DNA from: an uncultured delta proteobacterium
Lineage (GTDB): Bacteria; Desulfobacterota; Binatia; UBA9968
Direction of reading: 5' to 3'
Length of the DNA: 64,000 bases
Assembly: GCA_963737905.1 (NCBI GenBank)
Contig: CAVTUQ010000026.1
Location: 160,001 to 224,000 of the forward strand
Positions 4,479-40,492 of the stretch are shown one piece after another. A model generated the notes under the pieces. It made no database searches and was not told the DNA's origin. It worked only from the letters and a program-made list of their open reading frames with translations. Positions within the stretch are counted from its first letter, which is position 1; every line of letters starts with the position of its first letter. The position numbers and the translations under genes were made by a program.

Positions 4479-4849
4479 GCGACAAGACCGTCCTTTACGT
4501 GGAGGACAACGAGTACAATCTCAAGATCGTCCGCCAATTGCTGGCCCGCACTTCTTATCGGCTGATCGAGGCGGTGGATGGCCAGCTAGGGGTGGAGACG
4601 GCGCTCCGCGAGTTGCCTGACCTGATTCTTATGGATATCCAGCTTCCCAAGCTGTCGGGGCTGGACGCGACCCGAATGCTTCGCGCTGATCCCAAGACCG
4701 CCGCCATTCCGATTATCGTGATCACCTCCTTCGCGCTCAGCGGCGACGACCAGAAGGCGAAGGATGCAGGCGCCTCTGCCTATCTGGCAAAGCCCTATAG
4801 TCCTCGCGAGCTGCTTCAGATGATTCGTAAATTTGTGCCTGAGAGTTGA
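4475..4849 (+). CDS. Single-domain response regulator (DivK-like)
   Basis: VEDN, LILMDIQLP and YLAKP motifs; ATGA overlap with the HK. Confidence 0.93.
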   Translation: MSDKTVLYVEDNEYNLKIVRQLLARTSYRLIEAVDGQLGVETALRELPDLILMDIQLPKLSGLDATRMLRADPKTAAIPIIVITSFALSGDDQKAKDAGASAYLAKPYSPRELLQMIRKFVPES

Positions 4850-15137: not shown

Positions 15138-17393
15138 ATGTCGCGACTGTTTAAAGCCGGCTTCTTCGGCTTGCTTGTAGGGGTCGCGGGGCTGGTGGCG
15201 AGTTTTTTCCATTTTGCCCATGACATTGAGGAAGATGTGGGTCTCGGCTTGTTGTTCCAACTGAGGGGAGTCAGAAAAGCACCATCAGATGTTGTTGTAA
15301 TTAGTATCGACCGTGAATCCTCTGAGCAGCTTGATGTACCCGATAACCCCGATAGATGGCCTCGTTCTCTCCATGCACGTTTGGTCGAAAACCTCGAGAG
15401 AGAAGGTGCGAGGGTCATTGTCTTTGACGTATATTTTATCGAGCCCCGCTCTCCCAACGAGGACGATTCCTTTGTTACAGCAATAAGAAAAGCACGGAAT
15501 GTCGTGCTTGCCGAACCGCTTAAAGCGAGCGAAGTGGCCGGGTCCGACACGGACGGTTCTTACATGGGGCAGCATCAGATCGTCAAAAGAGTGAAGCCGA
15601 TCCCCCCCCTTTCACAGGCTGCCGTCGCCACGGCACCTTTTGTTCTCCCAAGACTACCCGTTAAGGTAAACCAATATTGGACATTCCAAGCGGCCGCCGG
15701 AGATTCCCCGACATTTCCGGTTGTCGCATTCCAACTCTATACTTTGCAGGCCTACGACGAATTTATCCGCATATTGGAAAAAGTGAGTCCGAATCAAGCC
15801 GGAAAACTGTCACACGATGCCGATACAGCGATTAAGTCAAAAGGTGCCATGAGGTTGATTCGGGATATCAGAGAAATTTTCGAAAGCGACCCTTTGATTT
15901 ACGAGAAAATGGTTGCGGAGTTAGACCGCTCGGACCGCGCCACGGGCGATGGGAATAAAATCAGATTCCTCAAATCTCTTGCCAAGATGTACGGCGGCGC
16001 GGATCACCAATATCTCAATTATTATGGGCCGCCACGCACGTTCAACACGATGCCATTTTATCAGGCGTTGCGACTCGATGAAGAGTCAGGCAGCGAACGT
16101 AAGATCGATCTCAAGGGTAAAGCGGTCTTCGTGGGGCTTTCCGAGGTATTGCTTACAGAAAGAAAGGACAGTTTTTATACGGCTTTCTCAAAAACTAACG
16201 GTGTGTTTATCAGTGGGGTCGAGATTGCTGCGACCGCATTTGCAAATCTTTTAGAAGATACATCCGTGAAACCGATCAGCACGCACTATTACATCATTAT
16301 TATTTTGGCCTGGGGGCTCCTGGTGGGTGTTGTTTGTCGTACGGCTGCTCCAGTACTTGCGGCGATAGGGATTCTCGGTATGGGCATTTTCTATCTCGCC
16401 GGTGCGCAGTATCAATTTAACGCTCATGCCACGTGGTATCCGGTCGTTATTCCCCTGTTCTTGCAGGCTCCGCTGGGATTTTTTGGCGCTGTGTTATGGG
16501 ACTATTTTGAGACGAATAAAGAGCGGCAGAATCTCAGGAAAGCTCTTGGTTACTATGTTCCCAACGAGGTGGTGGATGAGTTAGCAAAAAATATCGTCGA
16601 TCTGAAACGAGGCGACCAAACGGTATACGGTGCTTGTTTGCTCACGGATGCCGCGGGTTTCACCACGTTGTCTGAAAAGATGGGCGTGCGGGAATTGAAC
16701 GCCTTAATTGAAAAGTATCATCGGGTCATATTCGAGCCGATAAAGCAGAACGGAGGGCGGGTTATCGACCTGGCAGGAGATTCGGTGTTGGCAATCTGGA
16801 AGGCTGCTGGACCTGATGCCGAGCTGCGGAAACAGGCCTGCCATGCTGCTCTGGGTGTTGCCAAAGCGGTGCGCCAGTTCAATCAGTCTTTCGAGACTGT
16901 CAAACTACCGACACGCGTGGCCATTCATGTGGGACAGATCTTCTTGGGCAACGTGGGCAGTGAGGAAGATTATAGGTATGGTGCTCAGGGAGATACCATC
17001 AATACGGCATCAAGGATGGATGGTCTCAATAAATACTTGGGAACGGAGATTTTGGTGTCTGAAGAGGTCATACAAAACCTCGATGGTTTCTTAACCAGAG
17101 AAGCAGGTAGATTCCTGCTGAAAGGAAAGGCTCAGCCGATCGTAGTTCATGAACTATTATGTCGCACAGAAGAAAGCGACGAAAAACAGACAAGGGCTTG
17201 TGCGATCTTTGCCGAGGCGCTTCAAGCTTTCAGAAAGCGGTCTTGGGATGAGGCGAAAGCCAAATTTCATGAACAGATGAAAAACTCCGGAGAATATGGT
17301 TTGTCGAAGTACTACCTAAAGCTGTGTGAGCAGTATAAGAGGAATCCACCTGGGCAAGGATGGGACGGTGTGATCGATCTAGTGGAAAAATAG
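15138..17393 (+). CDS. CHASE2-domain membrane class III nucleotide cyclase (CyaK/CyaD-like)
   Basis: DVVVISID, WPRSLHA, VFDVYF and SGVEIAA CHASE2 motifs; three TM segments; cyclase TDAAGFT, AGDSV, NTASRM; C-terminal WDGV. Confidence 0.92.
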   Translation: MSRLFKAGFFGLLVGVAGLVASFFHFAHDIEEDVGLGLLFQLRGVRKAPSDVVVISIDRESSEQLDVPDNPDRWPRSLHARLVENLEREGARVIVFDVYFIEPRSPNEDDSFVTAIRKARNVVLAEPLKASEVAGSDTDGSYMGQHQIVKRVKPIPPLSQAAVATAPFVLPRLPVKVNQYWTFQAAAGDSPTFPVVAFQLYTLQAYDEFIRILEKVSPNQAGKLSHDADTAIKSKGAMRLIRDIREIFESDPLIYEKMVAELDRSDRATGDGNKIRFLKSLAKMYGGADHQYLNYYGPPRTFNTMPFYQALRLDEESGSERKIDLKGKAVFVGLSEVLLTERKDSFYTAFSKTNGVFISGVEIAATAFANLLEDTSVKPISTHYYIIIILAWGLLVGVVCRTAAPVLAAIGILGMGIFYLAGAQYQFNAHATWYPVVIPLFLQAPLGFFGAVLWDYFETNKERQNLRKALGYYVPNEVVDELAKNIVDLKRGDQTVYGACLLTDAAGFTTLSEKMGVRELNALIEKYHRVIFEPIKQNGGRVIDLAGDSVLAIWKAAGPDAELRKQACHAALGVAKAVRQFNQSFETVKLPTRVAIHVGQIFLGNVGSEEDYRYGAQGDTINTASRMDGLNKYLGTEILVSEEVIQNLDGFLTREAGRFLLKGKAQPIVVHELLCRTEESDEKQTRACAIFAEALQAFRKRSWDEAKAKFHEQMKNSGEYGLSKYYLKLCEQYKRNPPGQGWDGVIDLVEK

Positions 17394-17443: not shown

Positions 17444-20400
17444 GTGAAGAGGGTCTATTCATCGTTAGCTGTCATTTCTTGCATAGTCCTCTCGAGGGTA
17501 TGCGTCTACTCCGCTGTGTCTCCTACGGCAATAACCTGTGACCCATGGGTTGCAAGAATGGTTTCAGTCCAGGGGAACGTCGAGGTCAGACGGGCGAACC
17601 AGACACAGTGGCAGCCGGCTCACTTGAACGACACCTACTGTAGCGGCGATCGGATTCAGGTGGGAGAGAGAAGCCGAGCCAACGTCGCCCTGGTCAACCA
17701 GCCAATTATCCGTCTCGACCAGAACACCACGATCACTTTCGGAGGAGTGAGAGAAGAACGCACTTCTCTGATCGAGCTGCTTAGGGGAGCGCTTTATTTC
17801 TTCAGCCGTTTACCGCGGAACCTGGAAGTGCGTACCGCTTTCGTCAATGCCGGTGTGGAAGGGACCGAAGGCTTGGTTAGAGTTGAAGCGGACAGGACCT
17901 TTCTATCGATTTTCGAAGGGAGCGTGCTGGCTACGAACCAGGCCGGGAGTCTCACACTCACCAGCGGCCAGTCAGCAGTCGCCGAACAAGGCAGAGCCCC
18001 CACATTAACTGTGGTGGTGCGTCCTCGAGATGCCGTCCAATGGGCGTTGTACTATCCACCCACGCTCTTTTTTCGCCCTGAGGAATTCCCCGCGGGCCCC
18101 GGTTGGGAAGGAATGGTTCGAAGCTCCATCGAGGCTTACATGAAAGGTGATTTAGAGGCAGCCTTCGAAAGCATCAAGGGAGTTCCGGATACTATCAGCG
18201 AACCACGGTTTTTTGTCTACCGTGCCTCGTTGCTGCTGGCGGTGGGGCGGGTCGATGAGGCAAGCAAGGACATCGAGCGCGCACTGAGTTTAAGCCCGAA
18301 CTACAGTGATGCATTTGCGCTGCAATCCGTTATTGCCGTGGTACAAAACGAAAGAGAGAAAGCACTGGACATCGCAAGAAAAGCTGTTGAAGCTGATCCA
18401 AAATCCGCCGCGGCACTGATCGCCCTTTCCTATGCGCAGCAGGCAAATTTCGACCTCGAAGGCGCACTGGAGAGCCTGAAGCAAGCGGTGCAAGTAAACC
18501 CGAATAACGCCCTGGCTTGGGCTAGGTTGTCTGAGCTTCATCTCTCCTTCGCGCGACTAGATGAGGCCCTCGAAGCGGCCCAGAGGGCCGTGGCCCTCGA
18601 TCCAAACCTCGCAAGGACACAGACAGTTCTGGGATTTGCCTACCTGACGCAGGTCAATATAACAGAGTCAAAGAGGGCCTTCGAAAGGTCGATTGAGCTT
18701 GATCAGGCATACTATCTCGCGAGACTAGGTCTGGGTCTCGCGAAGATCCGAGAGGGTGATTTGCCTGAGGGAAGAAGAGAGATCGAAATTGCTGCAAGTC
18801 TGGACCCAAACAACTCCCTTGTCCGCAGCTATCTGGGCAAAGCCTACTACGAGGAGAAACGCATACCTTTGGATCAGCGCGAGTATGCGATCGCCAAGGA
18901 ACTGGACCCGAACGACCCAACACCGTGGTTCTACGATGCAATTGCCAAACAGACCACGAACCGGCCGGTTGAGGCGTTACAGAATATGGATAAAGCCATC
19001 GAACTGAACGACAATCGGTTGGTTTACCGGTCACGCCTGTTGCTCGATTCAGATCTGGCTGCGCGAAGCGCAGCACTTGGCCAGATCTACAACGATCTCG
19101 GTTTCCAGCAGCTTGGCCTGGTAGAAGGATGGAAATCCGTTAACACCGATCCAACCAACTTTTCCGCTCACCGATTGCTGGCCGATACATACGCGACTCT
19201 GCCGCGGCACGAGATCGCCAGGGTCAGTGAGTTGTTCCAGTCCCAACTGCTTCAGCCCATCAACATCACACCCATTCAGCCCCGGCTCGCTGAGAGCAAC
19301 CTCTTCCTCATTAGTTCCTCTGGCCCTGCGCGATTGTCCTTCAACGAGTTCAATCCCCTGTTTACCCGGAATGGAATTTCGTTCCAGACGACCGGCCTTG
19401 CCGGTGAAAATAGTACGTATGGCGGGGAAGGTGTTCTCTCTGGGATCTACAATAAGGCATCTTTCAGCCTTGGCGGTTTTCACTTTCAAACGGACGGATG
19501 GCGAACCAATGCTGACCAGAAGGACTCCATCGGTAACGCCTTCTTGCAATTTGAGCTCTCCCCGAAAACAAGCGCACAGGCTGAATTTCGGCAAAGAGAT
19601 ACAAATCAAGGCGATGTCCGACAAAGATTCTTCCCTGAGGATTTCTTTCCTGGCTTAACAGACAAAGTCGATAGTTTCAGCATACGTTTTAGCGGCCGTC
19701 ACTCGTTCTCGCCGGATTCGATCATGCTCGGCTCAGTTACGTTTCAAGACAGAGATCAAAGAGTAAGAGATGAATCGCCCCCTTCTCCTTTTCTTACTTT
19801 CACTGACACTAAACGTCCTCAGAATGCTGTTAGTGTGGAGCTTCAACACCTATTCCGTTCGCGCTACTTTAATCTTACAAGCGGTGCGGGATACTTCGAC
19901 ATCAGTGAAAAACTCCGAACGATGGCAGGAACAATTTTGCCACCTCCTTTTGATTTTAGTTCAGCAACCCTAAATACAGGCGTCCAACACGTCAATGCCT
20001 ATGCGTATGCCAATATCAACTTACCAAAAAGTGTGATTGTTACGACCGGGATAAGTTTTGACTATTTGAAGGGCGATTCGGTCTTCATTCCAGGGGGCGA
20101 TCAAACCCAATTCAATCCGAAATTCGGAATTACGTGGAATCCGCTCCCAGGGACGACACTTCGTGCGGCTGCGTTTAGGGTCTTAAAGAGAACGCTCATC
20201 ACAGACCAGACGCTTGAGCCAACCCAGGTCGCTGGATTCAATCAGTTCTTCGATGATCCTGAAGTAACAGAAGCATGGCGATACGGGGCGGCTGTCGATC
20301 AGAATAGTTACGAAGAACTTGTTTGGAGGCGCGGAATTTTCCACAAGAGATTCGGAGATTCCTCTAGTTGATGTTTCAGGTCCCGCTCCCGTAACCCGAA

Positions 20401-20846
20401 AACTTGACGGCAAAGAGTATTTCAGCCGCGCGTATCTTTTTTATCTACCCCATGAATGGCTGGCACTGAGAGCGGAATACATATTTGAACGATTTAAGAA
20501 CGATCGGTTGCTAGAAGAGCCGATCAGATTGAACACACATCGCGTTCCTTTGGGGATCAATTTTTTTCACCCTTCCGGATGGAGCGCGTCCCTGACGGCC
20601 ACTTACTATAGCCAAGACGGCAAATTTGTAAGACTTGCAACCGGCCTTGATCAGTCGGCGAGTGATGACTTTTGGACGGTCGATGCTGCAATCACGTATC
20701 GCCTGCCACAGCGCTATGGTTTCGTTACAGTTGGCGCGACGAATCTTTTTGACAAAAAATTCAAGTTTTTTGAGGCGGACCGCAACAACACAAACATACA
20801 ACCGAACAGAATAGGCTTTCTTAAACTAACACTGGCGCTACCGTAA
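17444..20846 (+). CDS. FecR-TPR-beta-barrel outer-membrane receptor (NsrA-like), split by a +1 frameshift near 20305
   Basis: Signal peptide; FecR (GDRIQVG, AGVEGTE); many TPRs; barrel strands; second ORF 20319-20846 carries the barrel end (NLFDKKF). Confidence 0.85.
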
Positions 20847-20996: not shown

Positions 20997-21230
20997 TCAA
21001 CAGTATCTAACGGGCATACCATTGATCCAGTAAATGCATCCGGCTTTTGAATGATTAAAAAGTAGTGAGCCGATATATCTGAACCCATCCTTACTATTGT
21101 AAAGATCGTCAAAGTCTTTTTTGGAAATCGCTTCTTTCTTCGCGCCATTTGTTGGTACTACACTAACAACTTTGCCAGTATCAATTTCGACAGTAATTAC
21201 CAACAGTTTCTTTTCAGATCCTTGGGGCAT
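20997..21230 (-). CDS. 77-aa peptide with C-terminal Cys-x11-Cys motif (candidate precursor or signal peptide)
   Basis: Strong RBS AGAAAGGAG; own sigma-70 promoter; ends HSKAGCIYWINGMPVRYC-stop. Confidence 0.75.
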   Translation of the reverse strand: MPQGSEKKLLVITVEIDTGKVVSVVPTNGAKKEAISKKDFDDLYNSKDGFRYIGSLLFNHSKAGCIYWINGMPVRYC

Positions 21231-21408
21231 TGTAAATAACTCCTTTCTATCCTAGAGAATCAAACTTGGTCATGAGCGCTTGACTATCAGCCACGGCCTG
21301 CTTTCTCAGTATGGGATCACAAGCCTACCGCTGCTCAAACCACTCCCCTGGACAAGCTTACGGCTCAAAGCTATTTAGGAAAAATTAAGGCCAACTCATA
21401 GTGGCAGG

Positions 21409-21437
21409 ACTTTATTCACCGACGCGGTTCTTGTCAA
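21409..21437 (-). promoter_or_regulatory. Sigma-70 promoter of the 77-aa peptide gene
   Basis: TTGACA-N17-TAAAGT on the minus strand; 19-20-nt direct repeats just upstream (21448-21492). Confidence 0.6.
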
Positions 21438-21745: not shown

Positions 21746-21936
21746 TTGACATCCCACCGACCGAGGCGACCAGCGTTTATAGTGAGGCACAGCATCAATA
21801 TTGTAATGACCCTTTAACTTGCTTTTGGTCCGGCCCAGTAATATACACTCGTTTGTCTATCGCCTTCGATATGCTCCCATAAGTTCGGCTTAATGGAATT
21901 GGGTACCATGCGACCCATTTGGGATTGATTCCCGTT

Positions 21937-24900
21937 ATGATTTGTACGCAATGCCAGTCCGAGAATTCGTTCACCGCGATCTTTTGCGACCACTGTGGGG
22001 CTCGTCTTGAGGCGGCTTGTCCTAAGTGTGGCGAGCCCAATCGGCAAGGAGCCAAGTTTTGTCGAAACTGTGGGCAACTCATAAATCACACAGCAGAAGC
22101 AGTCCCGGCTATGGTTTCTGCGGTACCGTCACCGGAGACCTATGTCCCTAAACACCTCGCTGAAAAGATATTGGCCTCGCGCGACTCTCTAGAAGGAGAA
22201 CGAAAGCAGGTCACTGTTCTATTTGCCGACATACGCGGGTCGACCAGCCTCGTGGAGGGGCTCGATCCAGAAGAGGCACAGAAAATTATTGACCCGGTCT
22301 TGAATGTCATGATGGACGCGGTTCATCGTTATGAGGGTACCGTCAACCAGGTGTTAGGGGATGGAATCATGGCGCTTTTTGGCGCGCCGTTGGCGCACGA
22401 GGATCACGCCTTGCGCGCCTGTTATGCCGCCCTGGCGATGCAGGAAGAAATGCGGCGGTATCGAAGAAAACTCGGGCAGTCGGAGGAATTGGGGTTACAA
22501 ATCGGGATCGGTTTGAACTCCGGCGAAGTTGTGGTGCGTTCTATCAGTAACGATCTCAATGTTGACTATTCCGCTTTGGGCCATACAACGCACCTAGCGG
22601 CTAGGATGCAGGAACTTGCAGCGGGTGGAACTACTTTGATGACGGCCTCGACTTTGCGGCAGGTGGAGGGATTCGTTCAAGTAAAATCGGTTGGCGCGGT
22701 GCAAGTAAAAGGTGTTTCTCGACCCGTTGAGGCCTTCGAAGTCGTCGCCGCCACGACGGCGCGGACTCGTGTACAGGCGGCGGCCCTGCGCGGGCTGACG
22801 CCATTAGTCGGACGCCGCACCGAAATCGAAGTTTTCAGCAAACTTGTTGAAGAGGCGGCATCTGGCAAGGGCCAAATCTTAGCGATGGTTGGCGAGCCAG
22901 GCATGGGGAAATCGCGCTTGGTCCACGAATTTGCTCGCCATCAGTTACGCCCGAGTTGGCTAGTGTTGGAGGGCGCATCGGTTTCCTACGGTAAGGCGAC
23001 TCCTTATTTCCCGCTTATCGAGATGTTGCGTCACTACTTTCAAATCGTCGATGGAGAAGGCAGCGAAAACATCCGAGACCAAGTGGTGATGCATATTTTA
23101 GAACTCGATAATATGCTAAAGGATGCGGTCCCACCGATCCTTTCGTTGCTGGATGCGATGCCGGATGAAAAAATGACTTCGCCGGCGGATGGGCATAATG
23201 GGTTAGTCCGGCTGCAAGAAATCGGCGAAATGATCAAACATTTCCACTCGATGGATCCCCAGCAGCGCCGCCGCCATACTCTGGACGCAGTGAAGCGGGT
23301 GCTCATCCGTGAGAGTCAACGGCAGCCGCTGCTAGTCGTTTTTGAGGACCTGCATTGGATCGATAGCGAAACCCAGGCATTTCTTGATAGCTTTATAGAA
23401 AGTCTGCCGAAGACGCGTCTCCTTCTACTCGTCGATTACCGGCCCGAGTACAGCCATGGCTGGGGCGATAAAAGCTATTACACGCAACTTCGCGTCGACC
23501 CATTGCAGCCGACCAGCGCAGAAGAGTTGTTACAACACCTCGTGGGAACCAATAAAGACTTGGTTCCGCTGAAAGAACTGTTAATTCATCGAACTGAAGG
23601 AAATCCTTTTTTCGCAGAGGAGAGCGTACGGTCTCTTGTGGAAGTTGGAGTTCTGGTCGGTGAGAAGGGTGCGTACCGGCCGGGTTTGATAATCGATGAG
23701 ATCCGGATTCCGAGCACCGTGCAAAGTGTCGTAGCGGATCGTGTCGATCGCTTGCCGATCGAGGAAAAGCACCTCCTGCAGACGGCTGCTGTTATTGGTA
23801 TCGTTGTACCTTTACCTTTGCTCCGCGCGGTTGCTGATCTCACCGAGGGCGACTTACGTCGTTATCTCGCCAATCTTCAGGAGGCTGAATTTCTCTATGA
23901 GACCAACCTCTTTCCAGAGTTGGAATATACTTTTAAGCATGCGCTCACCAACGAAGTTGTTTACGGCGCGCTTCTGCATGAACGTCGAACCGCCTTGCAT
24001 GCGCGTGTGTGTCGCGCCTTTGAGGAAGTCACAGGCGACCGGCTCTACGATCATATTGAGCAGCTCGCGCACCATGCCTTCTGTGGCGAGTTGTGGGAAA
24101 GGGCCGTGTCATTCCAGCGCCAGGCCGGCGCTAAAGCGTTGATGCGATCGGCCAATGTCGAGGCGGTGTTGTTTTTTGAGCGAGCTCTCGTTGCGCTTAA
24201 AAAATGGCCCGATAGCCGCAAGAAGTCGGAACAAGCTGTGGATCTTCGCTTGGAGCTCCGTAACGCACTTTTTTTGCTTGGTGAGTTTGACCGGCTCTAT
24301 CATTATCTCAAAGAAGCCGAGACCTTCGCGGAGACCCTGGGTGATCAACGGAGATTGGGTAGCGTACTTAATTTCATGATCTCCTACTTCGTGTTGATGG
24401 GAAATCACCAACGGGCGACGGAGATCGCCCAACGCGCGCTCAATGTTGGCGACCATGACATGTCCCTCGATGTCGTAACCCATTACTATCTAGGTGTTGC
24501 TTGCCATCATATGGGCAGGTATCGCGACTCCATGTCCGTTTTGACCCGGGCGATTGCTAACGTAGATAATGCGAACCTACGGTACGAGCGGTTTGGTACG
24601 GCCAACATTATCTCCGTCATTTGCCGCGTTTGGAAGGTTCAATGTCTCGCTCAGCTCGGTGCGTTTCAAGACGGCTTACTCAATGCGCGCGAAGCGATCC
24701 AGATCGCCGAGGAGTCTAAGCACCCCTATAGTCTTGCCTATGCGCGTTGCAGCCAAGGCCTATTGTTACTTGTCCAGGGAGAGATCGATGAGGCCATGCG
24801 GGTCTTGGAGGAATGCACAAAATTCTGCCAGCTCGCGGAAATCCGAGTTCTGTTTCCCCAGGTCGCTTCTTATCTGGGTCTTGCGTATGCGTTATCAGGG

Positions 24901-25383
24901 CGACTTGATAAAGCGTTACCGTTAATGGAAAAAGCTGACGAGGAAACCGGGCTTATCGGTAGGAAAGCCGGGCAGTCTCTGCGCATCGCCTGGCATGGCT
25001 ACGCCAACCTTCTCGCGGGGCGGATCGACGAGGCAGAAAAACTTGCCCAAAGGGCATTCGAATTATCTCAAGAGTCCAATGAAGAGGGGCATCATGCATG
25101 GACCCTTAAACTACTGGGTGATATTGCCGCGAGTAAGAAATCGACGGACAATCAGGCTGAAATCTACTATGGCCAAGCTTCGGCTTTGTCGAGGAAACTC
25201 GAAATGATTCCGCTTCAAGCCCATTCATCTTTGGCGCTAGGACAGTTCTATTTTCACAACGGCGATGCCACACGGTCCCGTGACGAATTGGCACGAGCGC
25301 TTGGGTTGTACCGGGAATCAAAGATGAGATTTTGGCAGACCCGTGTCGAAGCGGCACTTGATGAATTGTCGCGTACCTTATAG
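21937..25383 (+). CDS. Double zinc ribbon + class III cyclase + STAND/AAA_16 ATPase + TPR protein, copy 1
   Basis: Four CxxC; FADIRGST and LGDGIM; Walker A GEPGMGKS; Walker B FEDLHW; EGNPFF; YTFKHAL; TPR tail. Confidence 0.92.
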   Translation: MICTQCQSENSFTAIFCDHCGARLEAACPKCGEPNRQGAKFCRNCGQLINHTAEAVPAMVSAVPSPETYVPKHLAEKILASRDSLEGERKQVTVLFADIRGSTSLVEGLDPEEAQKIIDPVLNVMMDAVHRYEGTVNQVLGDGIMALFGAPLAHEDHALRACYAALAMQEEMRRYRRKLGQSEELGLQIGIGLNSGEVVVRSISNDLNVDYSALGHTTHLAARMQELAAGGTTLMTASTLRQVEGFVQVKSVGAVQVKGVSRPVEAFEVVAATTARTRVQAAALRGLTPLVGRRTEIEVFSKLVEEAASGKGQILAMVGEPGMGKSRLVHEFARHQLRPSWLVLEGASVSYGKATPYFPLIEMLRHYFQIVDGEGSENIRDQVVMHILELDNMLKDAVPPILSLLDAMPDEKMTSPADGHNGLVRLQEIGEMIKHFHSMDPQQRRRHTLDAVKRVLIRESQRQPLLVVFEDLHWIDSETQAFLDSFIESLPKTRLLLLVDYRPEYSHGWGDKSYYTQLRVDPLQPTSAEELLQHLVGTNKDLVPLKELLIHRTEGNPFFAEESVRSLVEVGVLVGEKGAYRPGLIIDEIRIPSTVQSVVADRVDRLPIEEKHLLQTAAVIGIVVPLPLLRAVADLTEGDLRRYLANLQEAEFLYETNLFPELEYTFKHALTNEVVYGALLHERRTALHARVCRAFEEVTGDRLYDHIEQLAHHAFCGELWERAVSFQRQAGAKALMRSANVEAVLFFERALVALKKWPDSRKKSEQAVDLRLELRNALFLLGEFDRLYHYLKEAETFAETLGDQRRLGSVLNFMISYFVLMGNHQRATEIAQRALNVGDHDMSLDVVTHYYLGVACHHMGRYRDSMSVLTRAIANVDNANLRYERFGTANIISVICRVWKVQCLAQLGAFQDGLLNAREAIQIAEESKHPYSLAYARCSQGLLLLVQGEIDEAMRVLEECTKFCQLAEIRVLFPQVASYLGLAYALSGRLDKALPLMEKADEETGLIGRKAGQSLRIAWHGYANLLAGRIDEAEKLAQRAFELSQESNEEGHHAWTLKLLGDIAASKKSTDNQAEIYYGQASALSRKLEMIPLQAHSSLALGQFYFHNGDATRSRDELARALGLYRESKMRFWQTRVEAALDELSRTL

Positions 25384-25478: not shown

Positions 25479-27146
25479 ATGAAAGAGACCCCAATGCTGG
25501 AGGCTACCATGAGTCCAGTGCCTGCTCGTGATCTTCGCGCCCATATTGAAGCGTTGGATCAACGCGGGTTGCTAGTGCGCGTTAAGCACCCTATCAACAA
25601 AGATACCGAACTCCACCCATTGGTTCGCTTGCAATTTCGCGGTCTGCCGGAACCGGCACGCAAAGCCTTTTTGTTCGAAAACGTCCATGACTCTCGCGGG
25701 GAAAAGTTCTCAATACCTGTTCTAGTAGGCGGCTTGGCCGCATCCGAGGAAATATATGCGCTCGGACTTCAATGTCGCAGAAATGAAATTGCTGATCGAT
25801 GGCAAAAAGCCTTATCTCACACTATCAAGCCCGAACTGATCAAAACGGGTAAGGTTAAAGAGGTGATTCATAGGGGTAAAGCCCTTCTTGATCATCGCGG
25901 TCTAGAAGAGTTTCCCATTCCAAACTCCACGCCCGGTTTCGATAACGCGCCCTATATCACAGCGGCCTGTTGGATAACCAAGGATCCGGAGAGTGGCGAG
26001 CGCAACATGGGGATGTACAGGGCCCAAATCAAGGGCCCGCTTAGGACCGGTATTTATCTTACTGACGGAAACAATACGGCGGCCAATTGGGCTAAGGCAC
26101 GCGCCCAGAGCAAACCGCTCGAAGCTGCCGCTGTGATCGGAGGGCCGGTGGCCGTTGCATATGCAGCGATCCAAACCGCACCTTACGGCGTTGACGAGCT
26201 GGCAATTGCCGGTGCCCTCGTCGAGTCTCCGATCCCTTTAGTCAAGGCGGAAACCGTCGACTTGGAGGTCCCCGCTGACGCAGAAATTGTGATTGAAGGA
26301 TTGATCCACACTGATGCATTGGAGCCGGAGGGATCCTTTGGCGAGTCCCATGGATATTCTGATCCCCGTACTCTGTCTCCTTATTTTGAAGTGACCGCGA
26401 TTACACACCGACAAAAACCCATCTGGGTTTCGATCATTAGCCAGCTCACTCCAAGTGAAAGCAGCAAGACCAAACAAACGGCTTACGAAACTTTTTGCCT
26501 GAGACTATTACGAGATCACCACGGCTTCAGAGGCGTTCACCAAGTGCGTCTTTGCGAACCGCTGCTAAATCGGCAGTACGCCGTCGTCAGCATGAGCAAG
26601 AGCAATAATGTTGAACCTTGGGACGCCATGTATGCCTTGCTTGGGACCAAGGCTAAAGCCAAGTTCATCGTCGCAGTCGATACGGACATTGATCCTGACG
26701 ATCCTTTAGCGGTCAACTGGGCAATCGTGAATCGTTGTCAGCCGCACCGCGACGTGCGCATCGTTCAGCCGAGGCCGTTGCCGCACGGGCCGCTAAACTT
26801 CCTAGCAGATGGTCATAACTACGACGTCGTAGATTCCGCGTTGCTCATTGATGCAACCATGAAGGGAAAGTTTCCACCTATTTCTTTGCCCGGGCGGGAA
26901 TACATGGAACGCGCTCTGGATATTTGGCGGGAAATTAATCTGCCTCCGTTAGACTTAAAAAATCCTTGGTACGGTTACTCGTTAGGACTGTGGAGTGACG
27001 AGAGCGATCACGAGGCTAGACTTGCAACAAAGGGAGAATATTACGAGACCGGCGAGAAGCTTATCAGCCGGCGCGTGACCTCCCCCCTGGGCAGTACGTT
27101 GGCGGACATTCGCCGCAGGTTTCGAGGTTCTGACCCGCGCGAATGA
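25479..27146 (+). CDS. UbiD-family prFMN-dependent decarboxylase
   Basis: DLRAHIEAL, AFLFENV, NMGMYR, VPADAEIVIEG, EGSFGESHGY, VDTDID and IDAT motifs. Confidence 0.92.
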   Translation: MKETPMLEATMSPVPARDLRAHIEALDQRGLLVRVKHPINKDTELHPLVRLQFRGLPEPARKAFLFENVHDSRGEKFSIPVLVGGLAASEEIYALGLQCRRNEIADRWQKALSHTIKPELIKTGKVKEVIHRGKALLDHRGLEEFPIPNSTPGFDNAPYITAACWITKDPESGERNMGMYRAQIKGPLRTGIYLTDGNNTAANWAKARAQSKPLEAAAVIGGPVAVAYAAIQTAPYGVDELAIAGALVESPIPLVKAETVDLEVPADAEIVIEGLIHTDALEPEGSFGESHGYSDPRTLSPYFEVTAITHRQKPIWVSIISQLTPSESSKTKQTAYETFCLRLLRDHHGFRGVHQVRLCEPLLNRQYAVVSMSKSNNVEPWDAMYALLGTKAKAKFIVAVDTDIDPDDPLAVNWAIVNRCQPHRDVRIVQPRPLPHGPLNFLADGHNYDVVDSALLIDATMKGKFPPISLPGREYMERALDIWREINLPPLDLKNPWYGYSLGLWSDESDHEARLATKGEYYETGEKLISRRVTSPLGSTLADIRRRFRGSDPRE

Positions 27147-27167
27147 TTTGTAATCCTTAACTCGCTC

Positions 27168-29036
27168 ATGGTAGACCGTCTGCAGGACGTTGCGCGTAGC
27201 ATAATCGGAGCCATGCGACTTTCCCCAGATTCTTTCACCGAGTTCAAGAGGGAGGCGATCGAGCAGTCGCTTACGGCGAGGTTCGAACACCAGGTTCGAC
27301 AGAATGCGGATCGCTCCGCAGTAATTACACCCGGTGAGACGCTGACTTATAACGATCTCAACCGCATGGCTAACCGAATAGCCAATGTGATCTTGGAGCG
27401 GCATGGGGAAGGGCAAGAGCCCGTCGCGATCATTGTGTCCAATGATGCGACATCCATCGCTGGAATCCTCGGTGTGTTGAAGGCGGGCAAAATATGCGTG
27501 CCTGTGGATGCAGGTCTGCCCGCGGCGCGAGCGAAAGCCATCATCACTGATTCACAGGCTGGCCTAATCGTTACCGGCGGCAAATATGTCCCACTCGCTC
27601 AAGCCTCAGGCTCAGTCACCCACGAAATCATAAACCTGAACGAACTTAAGCCCGACTTACCTGACCATAATCCGTCGGTGCCGATTGCTCCAACGGACTT
27701 GGCCCATATCATCTATACTTCAGGATCAACTAGCGAACCCAAAGGTGTCATCGACATTCACCGTAACGTGCTTCATCACGTGATGGTCGTCACTAACAGT
27801 TCCCGTTACTGTAGGGAAGATCGTATGACCCTGGTCCGAGCGCCAAGCAGCACGGGAGGGTTGGCGAATGTCTATTCGGCGCTGCTCAATGGTGCCTGTC
27901 TTTTCCCGTTCGACGTGCAGAACAAGAGCGTGGCCCAGTTAACGTCTTTGCTGATTGAGAACAACATAACGGTCTACCATTCGAGTGCGACGGTCTTCCG
28001 TCATTTTGTTCAAACCTTGGAGAAAAAGGATGAGTTCCCGCATTTGCGGCTCATCAGATTGGGGAGCGAGCAAGTCACCAAGAATGAATTTCAGAGATTC
28101 CAACAGCACTTCTCTTCCGAGTGTATCTTGGTGAACGCGCTTTCATGCACAGAAGCAATCACTTTCTGCCAAAATTTCTTGAATAAAGACTCGGTGGTGG
28201 CTGGTGAGACCGTCTCGGTTGGTTACGCGGTGCCGGACATGGACATTTTGTTGCTGGATGATATGGGAGAGACCATAGAACGTGGCGATTCCGGCGAGAT
28301 CGCTATCCGGAGTGAGTTTCTTTCCCCCGGCTATTGGGGAAAACCTGAGCTGACCCGCAAGGTATTTTTACAACGGGCGGGAGATGATGGTCACCGTGTA
28401 TATTTAACCGGCGATATGGGTCGAATGAATGCAGATGGCTGTCTTGAGCACATCGGTCGCAAAGATTTTCAAATCAAAGTCCGCGGCCACAGAGTCAATA
28501 CCGATGAGATCGAAATCATGCTCCTCACAGTTCCTTACATCAAAGAGGCGGCGGTTGTGGGACGCGAGAGTATGGCCGGCGATAGGCGCTTGATCGCTTA
28601 TCTTGTCTTCAAGGCCGAATTGAGTGCCACGGCCAGTCAACTCCGCGATTCGTTGTCTGAAAAACTCCCCAGGTATATGATTCCTTCAACCTTCGTCGTT
28701 TTGGATGCATTACCGCTGACTGCGAATGGTAAGATCGACCGGCGAGCACTTCCCGAGCCGCCGGTATCGAGGCCGGCACTGGACATCCCTTTCGTCGTGC
28801 CACGTAGCATGGTCGAAGAAACACTTTCGCGGATTTGGTCCGAGCTTCTTGAAGTAGACCAGTGCGGGATCGACGATAACTTTTTTGACCTAGGGGGCGA
28901 TTCTCTGCTCGCCGGCCGCGTCGTTGCCAGGGTGAATCACCACTTCCACACCAAGATAGCCATAAGCGATTTTTTCGAGTCGGCCACAGTCGCGAAGCTA
29001 AGTCGTATTGTGATGGAAACTACGCAGGCGCGCTGA
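27168..29036 (+). CDS. Stand-alone NRPS loading didomain (A-T)
   Basis: YTSGSTSEPKG, YLTGD, GRKDFQIKVRG, NGKIDR; PCP FFDLGGDSL. Confidence 0.92.
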   Translation: MVDRLQDVARSIIGAMRLSPDSFTEFKREAIEQSLTARFEHQVRQNADRSAVITPGETLTYNDLNRMANRIANVILERHGEGQEPVAIIVSNDATSIAGILGVLKAGKICVPVDAGLPAARAKAIITDSQAGLIVTGGKYVPLAQASGSVTHEIINLNELKPDLPDHNPSVPIAPTDLAHIIYTSGSTSEPKGVIDIHRNVLHHVMVVTNSSRYCREDRMTLVRAPSSTGGLANVYSALLNGACLFPFDVQNKSVAQLTSLLIENNITVYHSSATVFRHFVQTLEKKDEFPHLRLIRLGSEQVTKNEFQRFQQHFSSECILVNALSCTEAITFCQNFLNKDSVVAGETVSVGYAVPDMDILLLDDMGETIERGDSGEIAIRSEFLSPGYWGKPELTRKVFLQRAGDDGHRVYLTGDMGRMNADGCLEHIGRKDFQIKVRGHRVNTDEIEIMLLTVPYIKEAAVVGRESMAGDRRLIAYLVFKAELSATASQLRDSLSEKLPRYMIPSTFVVLDALPLTANGKIDRRALPEPPVSRPALDIPFVVPRSMVEETLSRIWSELLEVDQCGIDDNFFDLGGDSLLAGRVVARVNHHFHTKIAISDFFESATVAKLSRIVMETTQAR

Positions 29037-29085
29037 ATACACTTCGCCGCCGTCTGTTCTCATCCGTCCAGCAGAGCAAACTCAG

Positions 29086-32000
29086 TTGTCCGCCGATGAC
29101 AAAATAGAAAGAGTCGAATCTTCCAAAGGCTCGATCGAGCATATTAGTAATGACCTGCGTTGTTTCCCGCTTTCCTACAGCCAGCAGAGACTCTGGTTCC
29201 TAGACCAGTTAGATCCACACCATCCTGTCTATAACATCTGTAAGGCGGAGCGCATCAAAGGCCGCCTCAATATTGAAGCCCTAGAATCGAGTCTTGCCAC
29301 GATTGTGCGGCGCCACGCAATTCTAAGGACTAGTTTTCCCAGCATCGACGGGGAACCAGTTCAGAGCATCGACGGAGATGCGCGAATAACACTGCTGCGG
29401 GTCGAACTCAGTCGATTCTCAAACGCTCAGAAGCAATATGAACTGGAACGGTTAATTAGCCATGAAGCGCGCGCTGGGTTCGACTTGGCCCAAGGCCCTT
29501 TATTGCGAGCCAGCCTGCTGATTTTGGATGCCGAGGAGTTTGTTTGGCTTTTTGCGGTTCACCAGATAATTTGGGATGGTTGGTCTTTCAAAGTTTTTTA
29601 TCGAGAGTTGGCGATTCTTTACGATGCGGTCGCTTCCGGCAGAACCGCGGCGCTTCCTGAACTTCCATTGCAATACGGGGATTACGCAATTTCGCAACGC
29701 GACGAAAATCGGGGAGAGCGGCTGGACTCTGAGCTCTCGTTTTGGCGGCAACGGCTCACCCAGAGTTCTCATCAACTGTTGCTTCCCACCGATCATCCCA
29801 GACCTCCTCGGCAAACTTATCTCGGGGTGAGGCGATCGGTTGTCCTGTCGGATTCCCTGAACAAGGGACTCAAGGAGTTGAGCCGGCGACAGGACACGAC
29901 TTTGTTTATGACTTTGTTGGCGGCTTTCGTCACGCTACTCCACCGTTATTCCGGACAGCCTGAAGTCGTCGTAGGTTGCCCTTTTGCCAATCGACAGCAT
30001 CCAGAGATAGAGAATCTGATTGGATCGTTTGTTAACACATTGGCGCTGAACACAACCGTTGTCGGAAATTCATCATTCACGGAACTTCTATCCGGGGTGC
30101 GGTCAATGTGTTTGGCGGCCTTGGCTCATCAAGACTTGCCCTTTGAGAGATTGGTGGAGGAACTGCAGCCCGAGCGGAAGTTGAATCATAATCCAATCTT
30201 TCAAACGTTCTTCGCGTTTCAGAATACCGCGTTGCCAAATTTATCGCTGCCGGGTCTGCACACGGAACCCATTGAGATAAACACGGGCACTTCGAAGTTT
30301 GACTTGACTCTTTCGCTAGCGGAACGTCACGGACGATTAACCGGCTTTTTCGAATACAGCACAGACTTATTTGAGCCGGCAAGAATCGAGCGGATGGCCG
30401 GGCACTTTGAAACTTTGCTAAAAAGTATTGTCGCCGATCCAAATCAGCCAATCTCAACAATCTCGATTCTCACCGAAGGTGAGCGTCAACAATTGTTGAT
30501 GGAGTGGAACGACACGGCCGCCGACTACCCCAAAGACTCCTGCATCCACGAGCTGTTTGAAGCCCAGGTTGAAAGGACACCGGAGGCCATTGCGGTCCAG
30601 TTCGAAGGAAAGCAGCTGACGTACCGGGAGCTAAATAGTCGGGCCAATCAGCTAGCGCATTACTTACAAGGACTTGGAGTCGGTCCAGAGAAGTTGGTTG
30701 GTATTTGCATCGAGCGGTCTTTGGAGATGGTTGTCGGATTATTAGGGATTCTCAAGGTCGGTGGCGCGTATGTGCCGCTCGATCCGGCGTATCCGCGAGA
30801 GCGGCTGGAATTCATGCTGACCGATGCACAGGTAGCGGTTCTGTTAACGCAGGAGGGCATCGTCGAGGATAGAGGATTGAGGATAGACGATGGCGACCCT
30901 CGATCGTCAATCCTCGATTCTCAGATGAAAGTGGTTCGTCTAGATCGAGACTGGAAAGAGATAGCAAGAGGAAGCGAAGAAAGCGCAGCAAGTAATGGGA
31001 CAGCGGAGAATTCAGCTTACGTCATCTACACATCGGGCTCAACGGGACAACCTAAAGGCGTTCAGGTTGCGCACCGCTCGGTCGTTAACTGTTTGCATGC
31101 GATCGGCCGGCAAGTGGAGCTGAAGGACAGCGATGTGTTCCTCGCGGTCACGACGATCTCTTTCGATATCGCGGCGCTGGAAATGTTTCTGCCATTGATG
31201 ACGGGGGCCAAGCTGGTCTTGGCGATGCGGTTTGAAGCCATTGACGAAGATGCGCTGCATTGTCGATTGACCGAGTCCGCGGCGACGGTCATGCAAGCGA
31301 CGCCTTCGACTTGGAAGCTTCTGCTCGATACCGGCTGGCATGGCAGCGAGAGTTTCAAGGTTCTCTGCGGCGGTGAAGCTTTGTCTCGCGAGTTGGCGAG
31401 TCAGTTGTTAAAGGGCGGCGCTTCAGTGTGGAATCTTTACGGACCGACGGAGACGACGATCTGGTCGACGATTCACAGAGTCGAACCGGGCGAAGGGCCA
31501 GTATCGATTGGCCGCCCGATTGCCAATACGCAGGTCTACATTCTTGACAACCATTTACAGCCGGTGGCGGTCGGTGTGGATGGTGAGCTTTTCATCGGCG
31601 GCGACGGCGTGGCACGGGGATATCTAAATCGACCGGAACTAACGGCAGAAACATTTATTCGAAATCCATTTCGCGATTATTCTGAGTCGTGCCTCTACCG
31701 AACCGGAGACCGCGCGCGCTTCCGAGCTGACGGAAACATCGAGTTCATGGGACGCGCAGACAATCAAGTAAAGATCCGTGGTTACCGAATCGAGCTGGGC
31801 GAGATTGAGAATGTTCTGAGTCATCATGCGGCGGTGAGAGAATGCGCGGTCGTCGCTTTCAATAAACCTGTGTCCGACTCCGATAATCGAGAATCCAAAA
31901 TCGAAAATCCAAAATCACTGGTCGCCTACATCGTGCGCATCGCTCGGATGCCTTCTGTTACTGACCTTCGAAACTTTTTAAGAGAAAAGCTTCCTGCACA

Positions 32001-35000
32001 CATGGTTCCGTCCGCGTTCGTGGAGTTGGACGCCTTACCCCTAACCCCTAACGGAAAACTTGACCGCAACGCACTTCCCCCGCCCGATGGAACAAGACCA
32101 AAGATCGACGCGGGTTATGTAGCTCCCCGGACGGAGATTGAAGAGCTGGTCGCACAGGAGTGGCGAGAGGTGCTGAAGGTTGAAAATGTTGGGGTTTACG
32201 ACAATTTCTTTGATCTCGGCGGCCATTCGCTGCTTGCCACGCGTGTCATCGCGCGACTGCGAAGGACTTTTAGCGTCGCCATTGCGCTGCGGGAGTTGTT
32301 CGAATTGCCAACCGTAGCGGGATTGGCAGAGCACATCGATTTCCTACGGCGCAGCGGCTCCACCGTGACCTTGACGCCTATTGTTCCGGTAGAGCGAAAC
32401 CAGGCTTTGCCTTTGTCATTTTCCCAGCGTCGTCTTTGGTACCTGCAGAAAGTTGCCCCGAATCTGTCAGCCTACAATATCCCTGGCGCGTTCCGCATCA
32501 AGGGTAGTCTTGATTGCGCGGCACTCGAGCAGGCGTTCAGTGAGATGATCGCTCGGCACGATGTGTTGCGCTCGTGCATTCAGGAACGCGACGGACAACC
32601 ATGCCAGGTGATCGTTTCGAATATACGGATCGCGGTTCCACTTGTAGATCTCTCGCAGACGTCCCGTGAGCGAGCGGAAGCCGAGGCAACACGCCTGGCT
32701 GTCGAGGACGCGCGTCAGTGTTATGACCTTGAAAGCGCGCCACTGTTGCGAGCGAAACTCGTGAAGTTGGCTGACGACGATCATGTCGTCATACTCAATT
32801 TTCATCACATCATCGCGGATGGTTCATCACTGGCCGTGTTCTATAGAGAGGTTGCAGAACTCTATGAAGCTTTCCGGGTTGGAAGGGCATCGCCTCTGAT
32901 TCCACTGTCAATCCAGTATGCCGACTACACCGTGTGGCAGCATGAGTGGCTCCGGTCAACGGCTTTCGACACGCAACTGAATTACTGGAAACACCAACTC
33001 GCGGCTTTACCGCCACCGCTCAATTTCCCGACCGATTTCGAGCGCCGCGCCGCGCAAACTTATCGAGGCGCACGATCGACAAGACCATTAACCCGCGACG
33101 TTACTCTAGCCCTGAAAAGTTTCAGCAGGCAGCAGGGCGTAACCTTATTCATGACCTTGTTCGCTACCTTTAACATTCTGCTTTCACGGCTCAGTGGTCA
33201 GACTGACATTGTTATCGGTTCCACAGTCGCGGGGCGCAATCGTCCAGAGATTGATGGTCTAATCGGGTTTTTCATCAATGCCCTTCCCTTGCGTACCGAC
33301 CTTTCCAGGAATCCAAGTTTCTTGACGCTACTTCAGCGGGTCCGTGAAGTCTGCCTCGATGCGTATACCAACCAGGAAGTGCCGTTTGACAAAATTGTCG
33401 AGGAGGTCGGACCGCAGCGCGAGCAGGGACATAATCCTATTTTCGACATCCTATTCAATATCGCTGACACTTCGGAGCGCGTGCTTGCGTTACCAGGGTG
33501 TGAAGTAAGCAAACTTTCACAGGCTGCGCCTGGGGCTAAGTTTGACATTGTGCTCCAGGCGCCGGAGATTGATGGAAAAATTGAGCTGGCTATCGTTTAC
33601 AACGCCGACCTTTTCGGCGAGAGCCGTATCGTCACGTTACTAGAACAATTCGATGCTCTATTATCGCAGATCGTGAATAATCCTGGGCGAACGATCGATC
33701 AGTGTACACTCCTCACGCCGAGCGCACGGGCAGTTCTTCCCAACCCTACGGAAATTCTAGACGATACATGGGAAGGTGCGATTCACGAACTTCTCGCCGA
33801 ACAGGCGCGTCGTTGCCCCTTGAAGCTAGCGATTGTCGAACCCGAACAAACATGGACGTATCGGGAACTGGACCAGTGTGCCAATCAGTTAGCAAATAGT
33901 CTCGTTTCTTCAGGCATCCAGTCGAAAGATATTGTCGCCATCTACGCCCATCGCAGCTCGGCTCTCGTGCTGACGATATTTGGAGCACTAAAGGCGGGAG
34001 CGGCATTTCTGATTCTCGACCCGGCCTATCCTGCTCAACGACTGGCGGATTACCTGCAAATCGCTCAACCCAACGGGTGGATCCAGCTCGACGGAGATAG
34101 AGAGTTGCCACAGGAACTCATGAGTTATCTCGATAGTTTAACTTTGCGTTGCCGGATTGACATTCCACGCCAAAAACAAGAGATTTTCGAGCGGCTGTCC
34201 GAGTCCACCGAAAAAGAACCAAAAATGAATGTAAGAGCGAATGATCTCGCTTATGTTGCATTTACATCGGGTTCTACAGGACAACCAAAGGGCGTGCTCA
34301 GTTGTCACGGACCCATCACTCACTTTTTGCCGTGGCAGAAGGGCGCGTTTGACCTCAACGAAGCAGATCGCTTCGCGATGTTATCCGGACTCGCGTACAG
34401 CCATCTGCATCGCGATATATTTACCTCGGTGTTTCTTCGAGCGACACTCTATATTCCGAATCCGTTAGCCGCTCGTTCTCCAGATCGATTAGCTCAGTGG
34501 CTCGAGTCCAATGCCATCACAATTCTACACCTTACCCCTGCCCTTGGTCAGCTATTGTTAACTAGCGGTTCCAAGGGTTTTCCCTCGGTACGCCGAGTAT
34601 TTTTCGGTGGCGACGTATTGACGCATGGCGAAGTGGCACAGATCCGTGAGCTGATTCCGAATGCCAAAATTGGCAGTTTCTATGGCGCTACCGAGACCCA
34701 GCGGGCGGTGGGCTACTACGAGATCCCCGATGATCTTCCGTGCGATCGTATCGAGTCCACTAGGTCGGTCCCGTTGGGCCATGGTATTAAAGACGTACAA
34801 CTCTTGGTGCTCGACAAGAATTCGCGGTTGGCTGGTATCGGCGAGTTGGGCGAACTTTTTGTACGCAGTCCTCACCTAGCGGAGGGATATATCGGCGACG
34901 AAAGACGAACTGAAGAGGTATTTATCAGCAATCCGCTCACCAGTGATCCGAGTGATCGGCTCTACAGAACCGGTGAGATGGGACGATACTTGCCCGATGG

Positions 35001-40454: not shown

Positions 40455-40492
40455 TTGTAGAATTCTGTGGAACAACTTTTGTGGAGGTTACA

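Follow-up and report, generated by a model that had tools for sequence, protein, structure and literature searches.

A conserved small cysteine protein encoded beside NsrA-type receptor and CHASE2 sensor genes, with a probable selenocysteine in some family members

The question raised by this locus is whether a 77-codon gene on the minus strand at positions 20997 to 21230 of a 64,000-nucleotide stretch from an uncultured Binatia bacterium (contig CAVTUQ010000026.1; "the window" below means that whole stretch) encodes the precursor of a peptide or a complete protein, and what its product might do beside the outer-membrane receptor gene on which it converges. A preliminary description, made from the sequence alone, had proposed the leader-plus-core precursor of a ribosomally synthesized and post-translationally modified peptide (RiPP) or of an autoinducer. 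We found that the 77-residue gene is real and that its product is a member of a rare, undescribed family of small folded proteins of about 77 residues, in some of which the first of two conserved cysteines is very probably replaced by selenocysteine, as judged from an in-frame TGA codon and its sequence context. The neighboring genes, by their homology, encode an NsrA-type receptor/CHASE2 sensor module, and an overlooked third component of that signaling system is a likelier role for the small protein than that of a peptide natural product precursor. The surrounding system is already of a known kind; the conserved small cysteine- or selenocysteine-containing partner and the candidate selenoprotein family are new.

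The small gene, its family, and its predicted fold

The product of the gene, P0001, is read from an ATG start and ends in NHSKAGCIYWINGMPVRYC followed by the stop codon. It contains only two cysteines, Cys65 and Cys77, arranged as C-x11-C, with Asn70-Gly71 in the middle of the last stretch and cysteine as the last residue, all of which the preliminary description had read correctly from the sequence. Codons 65 to 77 (CIYWINGMPVRYC; positions 21000 to 21038, minus strand) correspond, according to the translation and the AlphaFold models described below, to a C-terminal beta-hairpin carrying the conserved cysteine pair. The ribosome-binding site AAAGGAG can be read directly from the sequence 9 nt before the ATG (21240 to 21246, minus strand), and to that extent the "strong" expression signals of the preliminary description were borne out. 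The promoter half of that claim fared less well: a promoter scan located TTGACA-17 nt-TAAAGT about 180 nt upstream of the ATG (21409 to 21437, minus strand), which is promoter-like by a 10/12 consensus match only, and the region holds 3 such sites versus 1.5 +/- 1.2 in shuffled sequences, which is no more than chance and does not bear out a strong promoter. No hydrophobic N-terminal segment was found in the P0001 translation, and since the open frame extends over only 84 codons, a hidden upstream signal peptide is impossible; the earlier statement that P0001 has no Sec-type export signal therefore holds. Because 91 open reading frames (ORFs) of at least 40 residues were listed in 15 kb, one of the size of P0001 is not significant alone, and we count the gene as real because homologues exist; the alignments and the predicted domain agree with this.

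A word-indexed search with P0001 alone found a single relative (79% identical; E = 3.7e-36). At E <= 1e-3, HMMER retrieved 38 proteins from 1.84 billion representatives. We regard 36 of them as plausible members; the other two, P0003 and P0026, are long eukaryotic repeat proteins and were dropped. A profile search of a 90%-identity collection yielded 80 clusters, whose source names are either "hypothetical protein" or evident misnomers; one of these hits derives from the record of a Desulfoferrobacter isolate. P0001 had no match in Pfam or NCBIfam, 39 relatives had none in Pfam, and 8 typical relatives had none in NCBIfam, its selenoprotein models included. We set aside as chance both the name "Veg," given to one member by JGI, and a weak match to PDB entry 3fb9 (E = 0.54). 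Our literature search returned no description of the family. Its members are also sparsely distributed among genome representatives, occurring in 2 of 401 in the sample of the window's phylum, in 1 of 151 around genome G460, in 4 of 201 around G611, and in 4 of 251 around G644.

All 105 rows of alignment A4 have cysteine at the Cys65 column, and conservation is at least 90% for Gly19, the proline before Gly-Cys, and Cys77. The consensus drawn from the alignments is ...ITVExxTGKVVxVxDENG...ELxxIYxSxxGFKYVGTILHxHSSPGCVYxxxGGxxxKICx, from which P0001 diverges by having KAGC in place of the usual SPGC. Among the 100 full-length members with the cysteine pair, the spacing is 12 residues in 76, 13 in 12, and 11 in 10 (P0001 included); one residue follows the last cysteine in 74 members and none in 12. 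Conservation is spread over the full length, the N-terminal 60 residues being as conserved as the hairpin, and a conserved leader followed by a variable core was not seen in the alignments. The cleavage that had been proposed near HSKAG would fall in the region of HS(S/K)(P/A)G, the best-conserved motif of the family, which the predicted structures place in the loop before strand 4; that proposal is not supported. An N-terminal Sec-type, lipoprotein (lipobox), or twin-arginine translocation (Tat) signal precedes the complete domain in 16 of 108 members, one of them being a twin-arginine form, and the remaining members, P0001 included, are leaderless.

AlphaFold2 modeled P0001 from 39 alignment rows with a mean predicted local distance difference test score (pLDDT) of 85.8 and a predicted template modeling score (pTM) of 0.61, placing strands at residues 9-14 and 21-27, a helix at 37-44, and further strands at 55-59, 65-69, and 74-76. 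The consensus-like member P0051, modeled from 102 rows (pLDDT, 88.8; pTM, 0.67), has the same order of elements. Both models are of one compact beta-beta-alpha-beta-beta-beta domain, in which the cysteine pair forms the ends of the last hairpin and the last two strands set the two cysteines opposite each other; in the P0051 model, these strands (62-68 and 71-76) are joined by a two-residue turn, and Cys63 faces Cys76. The terminal, cysteine-bounded hairpin of the preliminary description, closable by a disulfide, thus survives in both models, with whose predicted register it is compatible.

No solved fold was matched by either model in Foldseek searches of the PDB (best E = 1.1 for P0001 and 0.08 for P0051), and in VIA-align against 48,161 chains, the P0001 model drew no chain at Z >= 2 and the P0051 model a single one (Z 2.2); the lack of fold matches is no proof of a new fold. 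Thioredoxin-like, rhodanese, and HMA-type folds were not among the matches of the two Foldseek and two VIA-align searches, which does not exclude such a fold. In the ESM Atlas, the best score was 0.88, to unnamed clusters. Positions 3-39 of the family profile A2 (..MKIKVxTxTGKxVxV..) resemble the first hairpin of ubiquitin. A single polyubiquitin chain was hit at E = 5e-4 (23 bits), every further ubiquitin row scoring E >= 0.029. The fold searches listed a ubiquitin-like chain for neither model, and we treat the likeness as a shared hairpin motif.

Two observations concern duplication within the family. In locus L045 (genome G032), two diverged tandem paralogues (1147-1377 and 1489-1737) stand convergent after one receptor gene. 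In G641 (L043/L038), the member lies inside a 214-codon open frame (1078-1719 of L038), the upstream part of which matches the N-terminal hairpin of the family once more and may represent a partial duplication.

Linkage to receptor and CHASE2 sensor genes

In the window, the small gene is the last of an ordered set. A CHASE2-domain adenylate/guanylate cyclase gene (15138 to 17393, plus strand; CHASE2, E = 9.4e-31; Guanylate_cyc, E = 1.9e-15), whose product is assigned as an inner-membrane sensor, is followed by a gene for a FecR-TPR-barrel protein that lies in two frames, and then by the convergent small gene. The first receptor piece (17444 to 20371, plus strand) encodes 975 residues with Pfam matches to FecR (E = 2.1e-12), to TPR families, and to the start of a TonB-receptor-like barrel (E = 9.8e-8); the C-terminal barrel piece of 175 residues (20319 to 20846, plus strand), recognized by Pfam and by comparison with orthologs, is in another frame. 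Intact orthologues occupy one frame and have 1132 to 1135 residues, and G000 matches the query in two pieces, at query residues 2-959 and 954-1132. Since relatives have a single receptor frame, the window copy is frameshifted, with a one-base change of frame near 20300-20320; this may reflect either a genuine pseudogene or an assembly error in the metagenome-assembled genome. Contigs from four soil-metagenome runs extended over neither this site nor the body of the small ORF. The barrel piece ends at 20846 and the small gene runs toward it, so that the convergence on an outer-membrane receptor gene noted in the preliminary description is correct.

The same association is kept across distant genomes, as the preliminary description's link to FecR-TPR/CHASE2 genes implied. 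Among 12 loci with a family member whose neighbors we examined, the small gene stands directly after a TPR-barrel receptor gene in 9, counting L009, where one gene intervenes. L030 and L031 share the arrangement of the window, with the CHASE2 cyclase gene upstream of the receptor gene, and the cyclase gene is likewise upstream of the receptor gene in L058 and L059. In L009, which carries a probable selenocysteine form discussed below, the small gene is convergent and the intervening gene encodes a 305-residue secreted protein. L044 and L045 are convergent as well, the latter with the two tandem paralogues. In L032 (G403), the small gene is co-directional with the receptor gene. L041 and L043 present another partner, with genes for the FecR-TPR-barrel protein, the small protein, a CHASE2 histidine kinase, and a sigma-54 response regulator following one another on one strand. 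Of the 9 linked loci, 7 have a CHASE2 gene; the remaining two lie on contigs that break off within the receptor gene. The three unlinked loci comprise a 1.5-kb contig (L010), a gene that lies 866 bp from a contig end with nothing in 8 kb downstream (L008/L036), and a weak match (L042; E = 8.5e-4). According to Pfam, no maturase, leader peptidase, or ABC exporter gene recurs in the 9 linked loci. Because the small gene follows the receptor gene both where the sensor is a cyclase and where it is a kinase, and regardless of orientation, its product probably works with the parts that these loci have in common, namely, the receptor and the CHASE2 domain.

After the small gene in L032, at 3430-4755, lies a convergent gene for a transcriptional activator with cyclic nucleotide (cNMP)-binding and BTAD domains, which is possibly a reader of the cyclic nucleotide.

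The receptor gene is more widespread than the small gene and was found in 12 of 61 relatives (a count that includes genome G006). Paralogous receptor genes are followed instead by genes for unrelated Cys-rich proteins of 220 to 305 residues with signal peptides, several of which also end in a Cys-bounded stretch (L046 to L050, from G021, G008, G033, G028, and G030, and L009 at 1085-2002). By hidden Markov model, these are not members of the small protein family (best E = 0.014 in a search of six sequences). Each receptor may be paired with a partner protein of its own.

The receptor is homologous to a 1218-residue FecR-TPR-barrel protein encoded on a megaplasmid of Ensifer adhaerens (BLASTP: N-terminal part, E = 6e-24; barrel, E = 3e-11), whose gene directly precedes that of a CHASE2 cyclase. 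We take the Ensifer protein to be the NsrA orthologue and nsrA to adjoin cyaK. According to papers on Sinorhizobium meliloti, NsrA together with CHASE2 cyclases perceives a protein signal, which comes from the cytoplasm of lysed cells and is nonribosomal uL2, also present in bacterial and yeast extracts (PMC7529298, PMC13001267), and a figure legend places the NsrA barrel at residues 600-1200 (PMC7529298). In Campylobacterota, CHASE2 cyclase genes have been noted in clusters with genes for a phosphodiesterase, a TPR protein, and an outer-membrane protein with a FecR domain (PMC9239204). Other, periplasmic targets of Clr have been described elsewhere (PMC5498481). The S. meliloti system of NsrA with CyaK, CyaD1, and CyaD2 is thus a receptor with CHASE2 cyclases, as is the pair formed here by a FecR-TPR-barrel protein of about 1130 residues and a neighboring CHASE2 cyclase. 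It differs in two respects: its sensors are cyclases, whereas the CHASE2 partner is a histidine kinase in two lineages here, and no dedicated small protein is described for it in the excerpts available to us, whereas a conserved small cysteine/selenocysteine gene accompanies the receptor here. Nor do the available portions of any of these four papers (PMC7529298, PMC13001267, PMC9239204, and PMC5498481) mention a small cysteine protein.

Probable selenocysteine at the first cysteine position

Five predicted proteins of the family (P0019, P0023, P0024, P0038, and P0109) terminate precisely after ...SPG, so that the next codon would be that of the invariant cysteine. L009, the locus of P0038, is the one of these forms that was checked at the DNA level, the other four being known as predicted proteins. 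There, an in-frame TGA stands at the Cys65 column, and conceptual translation beyond it gives WYYLLAGRYYKICVPQ, followed by TAG, restoring the family hairpin with its second conserved cysteine; the genome search independently counts "1 TGA" inside the L009 match. The same contig carries a 744-residue barrel ORF with no internal stop under table 11, and TGA is therefore not a general sense codon there. An in-frame TGA aligned with an invariant cysteine is the arrangement found in bacterial selenoproteins that have cysteine homologues. The L009 bin also holds a tRNA-Sec gene (78.4 bits; threshold, 47), which ARAGORN reads as SeC with anticodon tca and whose contig further bears a C-terminal fragment of SelD and a bacterial prepilin-type gene. 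The L009 RNA can form a stem of 5 bp plus 4 bp, whose apical GGUC loop lies at +22 to +25 when numbering starts at the U of the UGA, the same letters at the same position as in the selenocysteine insertion sequence (SECIS) of Escherichia coli fdhF. On these grounds, we conclude that the first cysteine is very probably selenocysteine in some members.

Each of the five proteins that end at SPG is nearer to a cysteine form (54 to 71% identity) than to another SPG-ended form (42 to 56%), which suggests that cysteine and selenocysteine were exchanged several times independently. Single-protein contig scans returned, besides L009, cysteine forms only. The genome of the window (87% complete) has selA at 607 bits; its best tRNA-Sec candidate scores 46.6 bits (threshold, 47) and is read by ARAGORN as tRNA-Leu.

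Exchange of cysteine and selenocysteine is typical of catalytic redox residues or metal ligands, and the exchange seen here therefore argues that the first cysteine does more than serve the structure and is reactive, redox-active, or a ligand. Formate dehydrogenase H and thioredoxin-fold proteins with a CxxU motif are examples of bacterial selenoproteins with cysteine homologues. Whereas thioredoxin-fold/CxxC oxidoreductases carry CxxC or CxxU, the present family is without that motif, its cysteine pair being 11 to 16 residues apart; what sets it apart from known selenoproteins is a (S)PG-U/C-x11-14-C motif at the C terminus of a 77-residue domain. We found no paper joining selenocysteine and CHASE2, and a literature search with the SPGC/SPGU motif of the family gave nothing relevant.

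A further observation comes from locus L060 (contig C20 of G460), where the C-terminal part of SelD is followed in frame by an AhpD-like domain (7-924) and the contig ends with tRNA-Sec. The bin is labeled archaeal, yet it has bacterial contigs with an outer-membrane barrel and a prepilin gene.

Proposed role of the small protein and competing explanations

We consider it moderately probable that the small protein is a redox-switchable accessory, that is, a ligand, co-receptor, or modulator, of the NsrA/CHASE2 envelope module. It would then be a complete small protein rather than a precursor, consisting of one compact domain in which Cys65 (selenocysteine in some relatives) and Cys77, both in the last hairpin, form a redox-active pair. 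From the exchange of cysteine and selenocysteine it follows that the hairpin probably does chemistry, most simply as a dithiol-to-disulfide switch; the pair may alternate between the dithiol and the disulfide, or the selenenylsulfide where selenocysteine is present. The protein would stand as an accessory third component beside the outer-membrane FecR-TPR-barrel receptor and the inner-membrane CHASE2 sensor, the latter being an adenylate cyclase here and, elsewhere, a histidine kinase with a sigma-54 regulator. By analogy with S. meliloti, it could be the module's own protein ligand or cofactor, and the open or closed state of the hairpin might set the engagement of the receptor or the sensor and, hence, the output of cyclic AMP (cAMP). 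The redox switching, the physical binding, the compartment, and the effect on cAMP are what we infer beyond the conserved sequence and gene order.

Several points weigh against this reading, of which topology is its main weakness. P0001 and its closest relatives are without an export signal, while the FecR-TPR and CHASE2 parts are periplasmic, and signal sequences occur in only the 16 of 108 members noted above. Possible ways out are release by lysis, as with uL2; an unrecognized export route; and a cytoplasmic role with a linkage that is only regulatory. Further, the window gene runs toward the module from a putative promoter of its own, which excludes co-transcription with the module there, and the receptor gene that it faces is the frameshifted one. 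P0001 itself departs from the SPGC motif with its KAGC. Neither is the small protein obligatory, as the receptor-bearing genomes G021, G008, and G033 gave no family match at E <= 0.1, and no family member was found in the Ensifer locus. As to selenocysteine, a single form was checked at the DNA level, and the L009 hairpin is weak, at -5.2 kcal/mol versus -5.5 +/- 2.1 in shuffled sequences, its GGU being partly accounted for by a conserved Gly codon; Rfam reported nothing near the L009 TGA. Neither selA nor selB was found in the L009 bin, which is evidently mixed because its listed relatives are genomes of 0.3 to 1 Mb.

The best-surviving alternative, which we regard as possible but unlikely, takes the small protein to be a general thiol/selenol redox or metal-binding protein that acts in the cytoplasm (or, in the signal-bearing forms, in the periplasm) and is found near the receptor through co-regulation or a shared stimulus only. 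In its favor, most members, P0001 and all five putative selenocysteine forms among them, are leaderless, the window gene lies in convergent orientation and has a promoter-like site to itself, and one strong member (L008) has no receptor gene in the 8 kb downstream; cysteine/selenocysteine exchange of the kind typical of redox or ligand residues suits it too, as does a mostly conserved H-x-H ahead of the cysteine. However, receptor adjacency in 9 of 12 loci, with cyclase or kinase and in both orientations, is hard to reconcile with the lack of a functional tie, and the histidines of H-x-H are not invariant, with E, K, Q, T, and F occurring at those columns. Nor does the family have a CxxC motif or a match to a thioredoxin, rhodanese, or HMA-type fold.

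A more ambitious extension of the accessory role, which we judge decidedly unlikely, would make the small protein a self-encoded signal with a built-in redox sensor, in effect a bacterial "damage or kin-lysis" signal released by lysis or export. Such a protein would be leaderless and kept reduced in the cytoplasm; once freed by cell damage or through an unrecognized export route, it would be oxidized outside, where the Cys/Sec (cysteine/selenocysteine) hairpin would close, and only the closed form would be recognized by the NsrA-type receptor of neighboring cells, switching on their CHASE2 cyclases or kinases. The parallel is with cytoplasmic uL2, the release of which triggers Sinorhizobium NsrA. 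If true, this version would also bring with it a selenoprotein family that is new and for which no fold has been solved.

It is improbable that the TPR-barrel protein is an outer-membrane translocon of the Slam/type 11 secretion kind, rather than a receptor, and the small protein its cargo or surface partner. Systems of that kind, like the loci here, combine an outer-membrane protein whose TPR part is periplasmic with a variable neighboring gene for a small, sometimes lipidated protein; the variable, Cys-rich signal-peptide proteins of 220 to 305 residues that take the place of the small gene beside paralogous receptor genes have a cargo-like look, and the 16 of 108 members with Sec-type, lipoprotein, or Tat signals could be cargo. 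Slam barrels, however, are of the DUF560 type, whereas the barrel here is TonB-receptor-like, matching TonB_dep_Rec_b-barrel, and is fused to FecR; DUF560/Slam was not matched at E <= 0.01 by the window pieces or at E <= 1e-5 by L030. The partner is instead a FecR-TPR-barrel fusion of the NsrA type, with homology to the Ensifer protein, and most family members, among them P0001 and its closest relatives, have no signal peptide, so that the periplasmic loading site would be unreachable for P0001 by the usual route.

Least of all does the original proposal survive: although disulfide-cyclized ribosomal peptides and RiPP precursors share with this gene its small size and a C-terminal two-cysteine segment able to close a hairpin, although the gene adjoins receptor genes and lies in the window 4 kb from a nonribosomal peptide synthetase (NRPS) cluster and a UbiD-like gene, and although some RiPP classes have conserved cores, a leader cut near HSKAG to free a disulfide-closed 13-residue hairpin is highly improbable for a chain that is conserved throughout and confidently predicted to pack its N-terminal part with the hairpin in one domain, that is carried whole in the signal-bearing forms, that is accompanied in the 9 linked loci by no recurring maturase, peptidase, or exporter gene and by no conserved NRPS neighbors, and in which selenocysteine would not be expected to replace a merely structural cysteine. 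The preliminary description had itself named, as evidence that would speak against a precursor, homologues that are uniformly conserved globular domains with no linkage to a receptor; uniform conservation and predicted globular domains are what we see, but the receptor linkage is present, so that only half of that evidence is found. The remaining probability falls to something else.

The accessory role, if correct, would matter beyond this locus. CHASE2 is among the commonest extracytoplasmic sensor domains of bacteria, and in the parts of the literature available to us, the uL2 of the rhizobial NsrA pathway is the sole signal that we found reported for any CHASE2 sensor. A small protein encoded beside NsrA-type receptors is thus a testable candidate for an endogenous ligand or cofactor. 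The family is also a candidate selenoprotein family with no match in Pfam, NCBIfam, or the solved folds, and gene callers cut its selenocysteine forms at the TGA.

On the far side of the small gene, the window holds genes of other kinds, which are not conserved beside the family elsewhere. At 21919-25383, divergent from the small gene, is a gene for one protein with zinc-ribbon, cyclase, AAA_16, and TPR parts. It is followed at 25479-42376 by the UbiD-like gene and the NRPS cluster, which comprises an adenylation/peptidyl carrier protein (PCP) gene, two condensation-adenylation-thiolation (C-A-T) megasynthases with a TubC-type docking domain, and a hydrolase.

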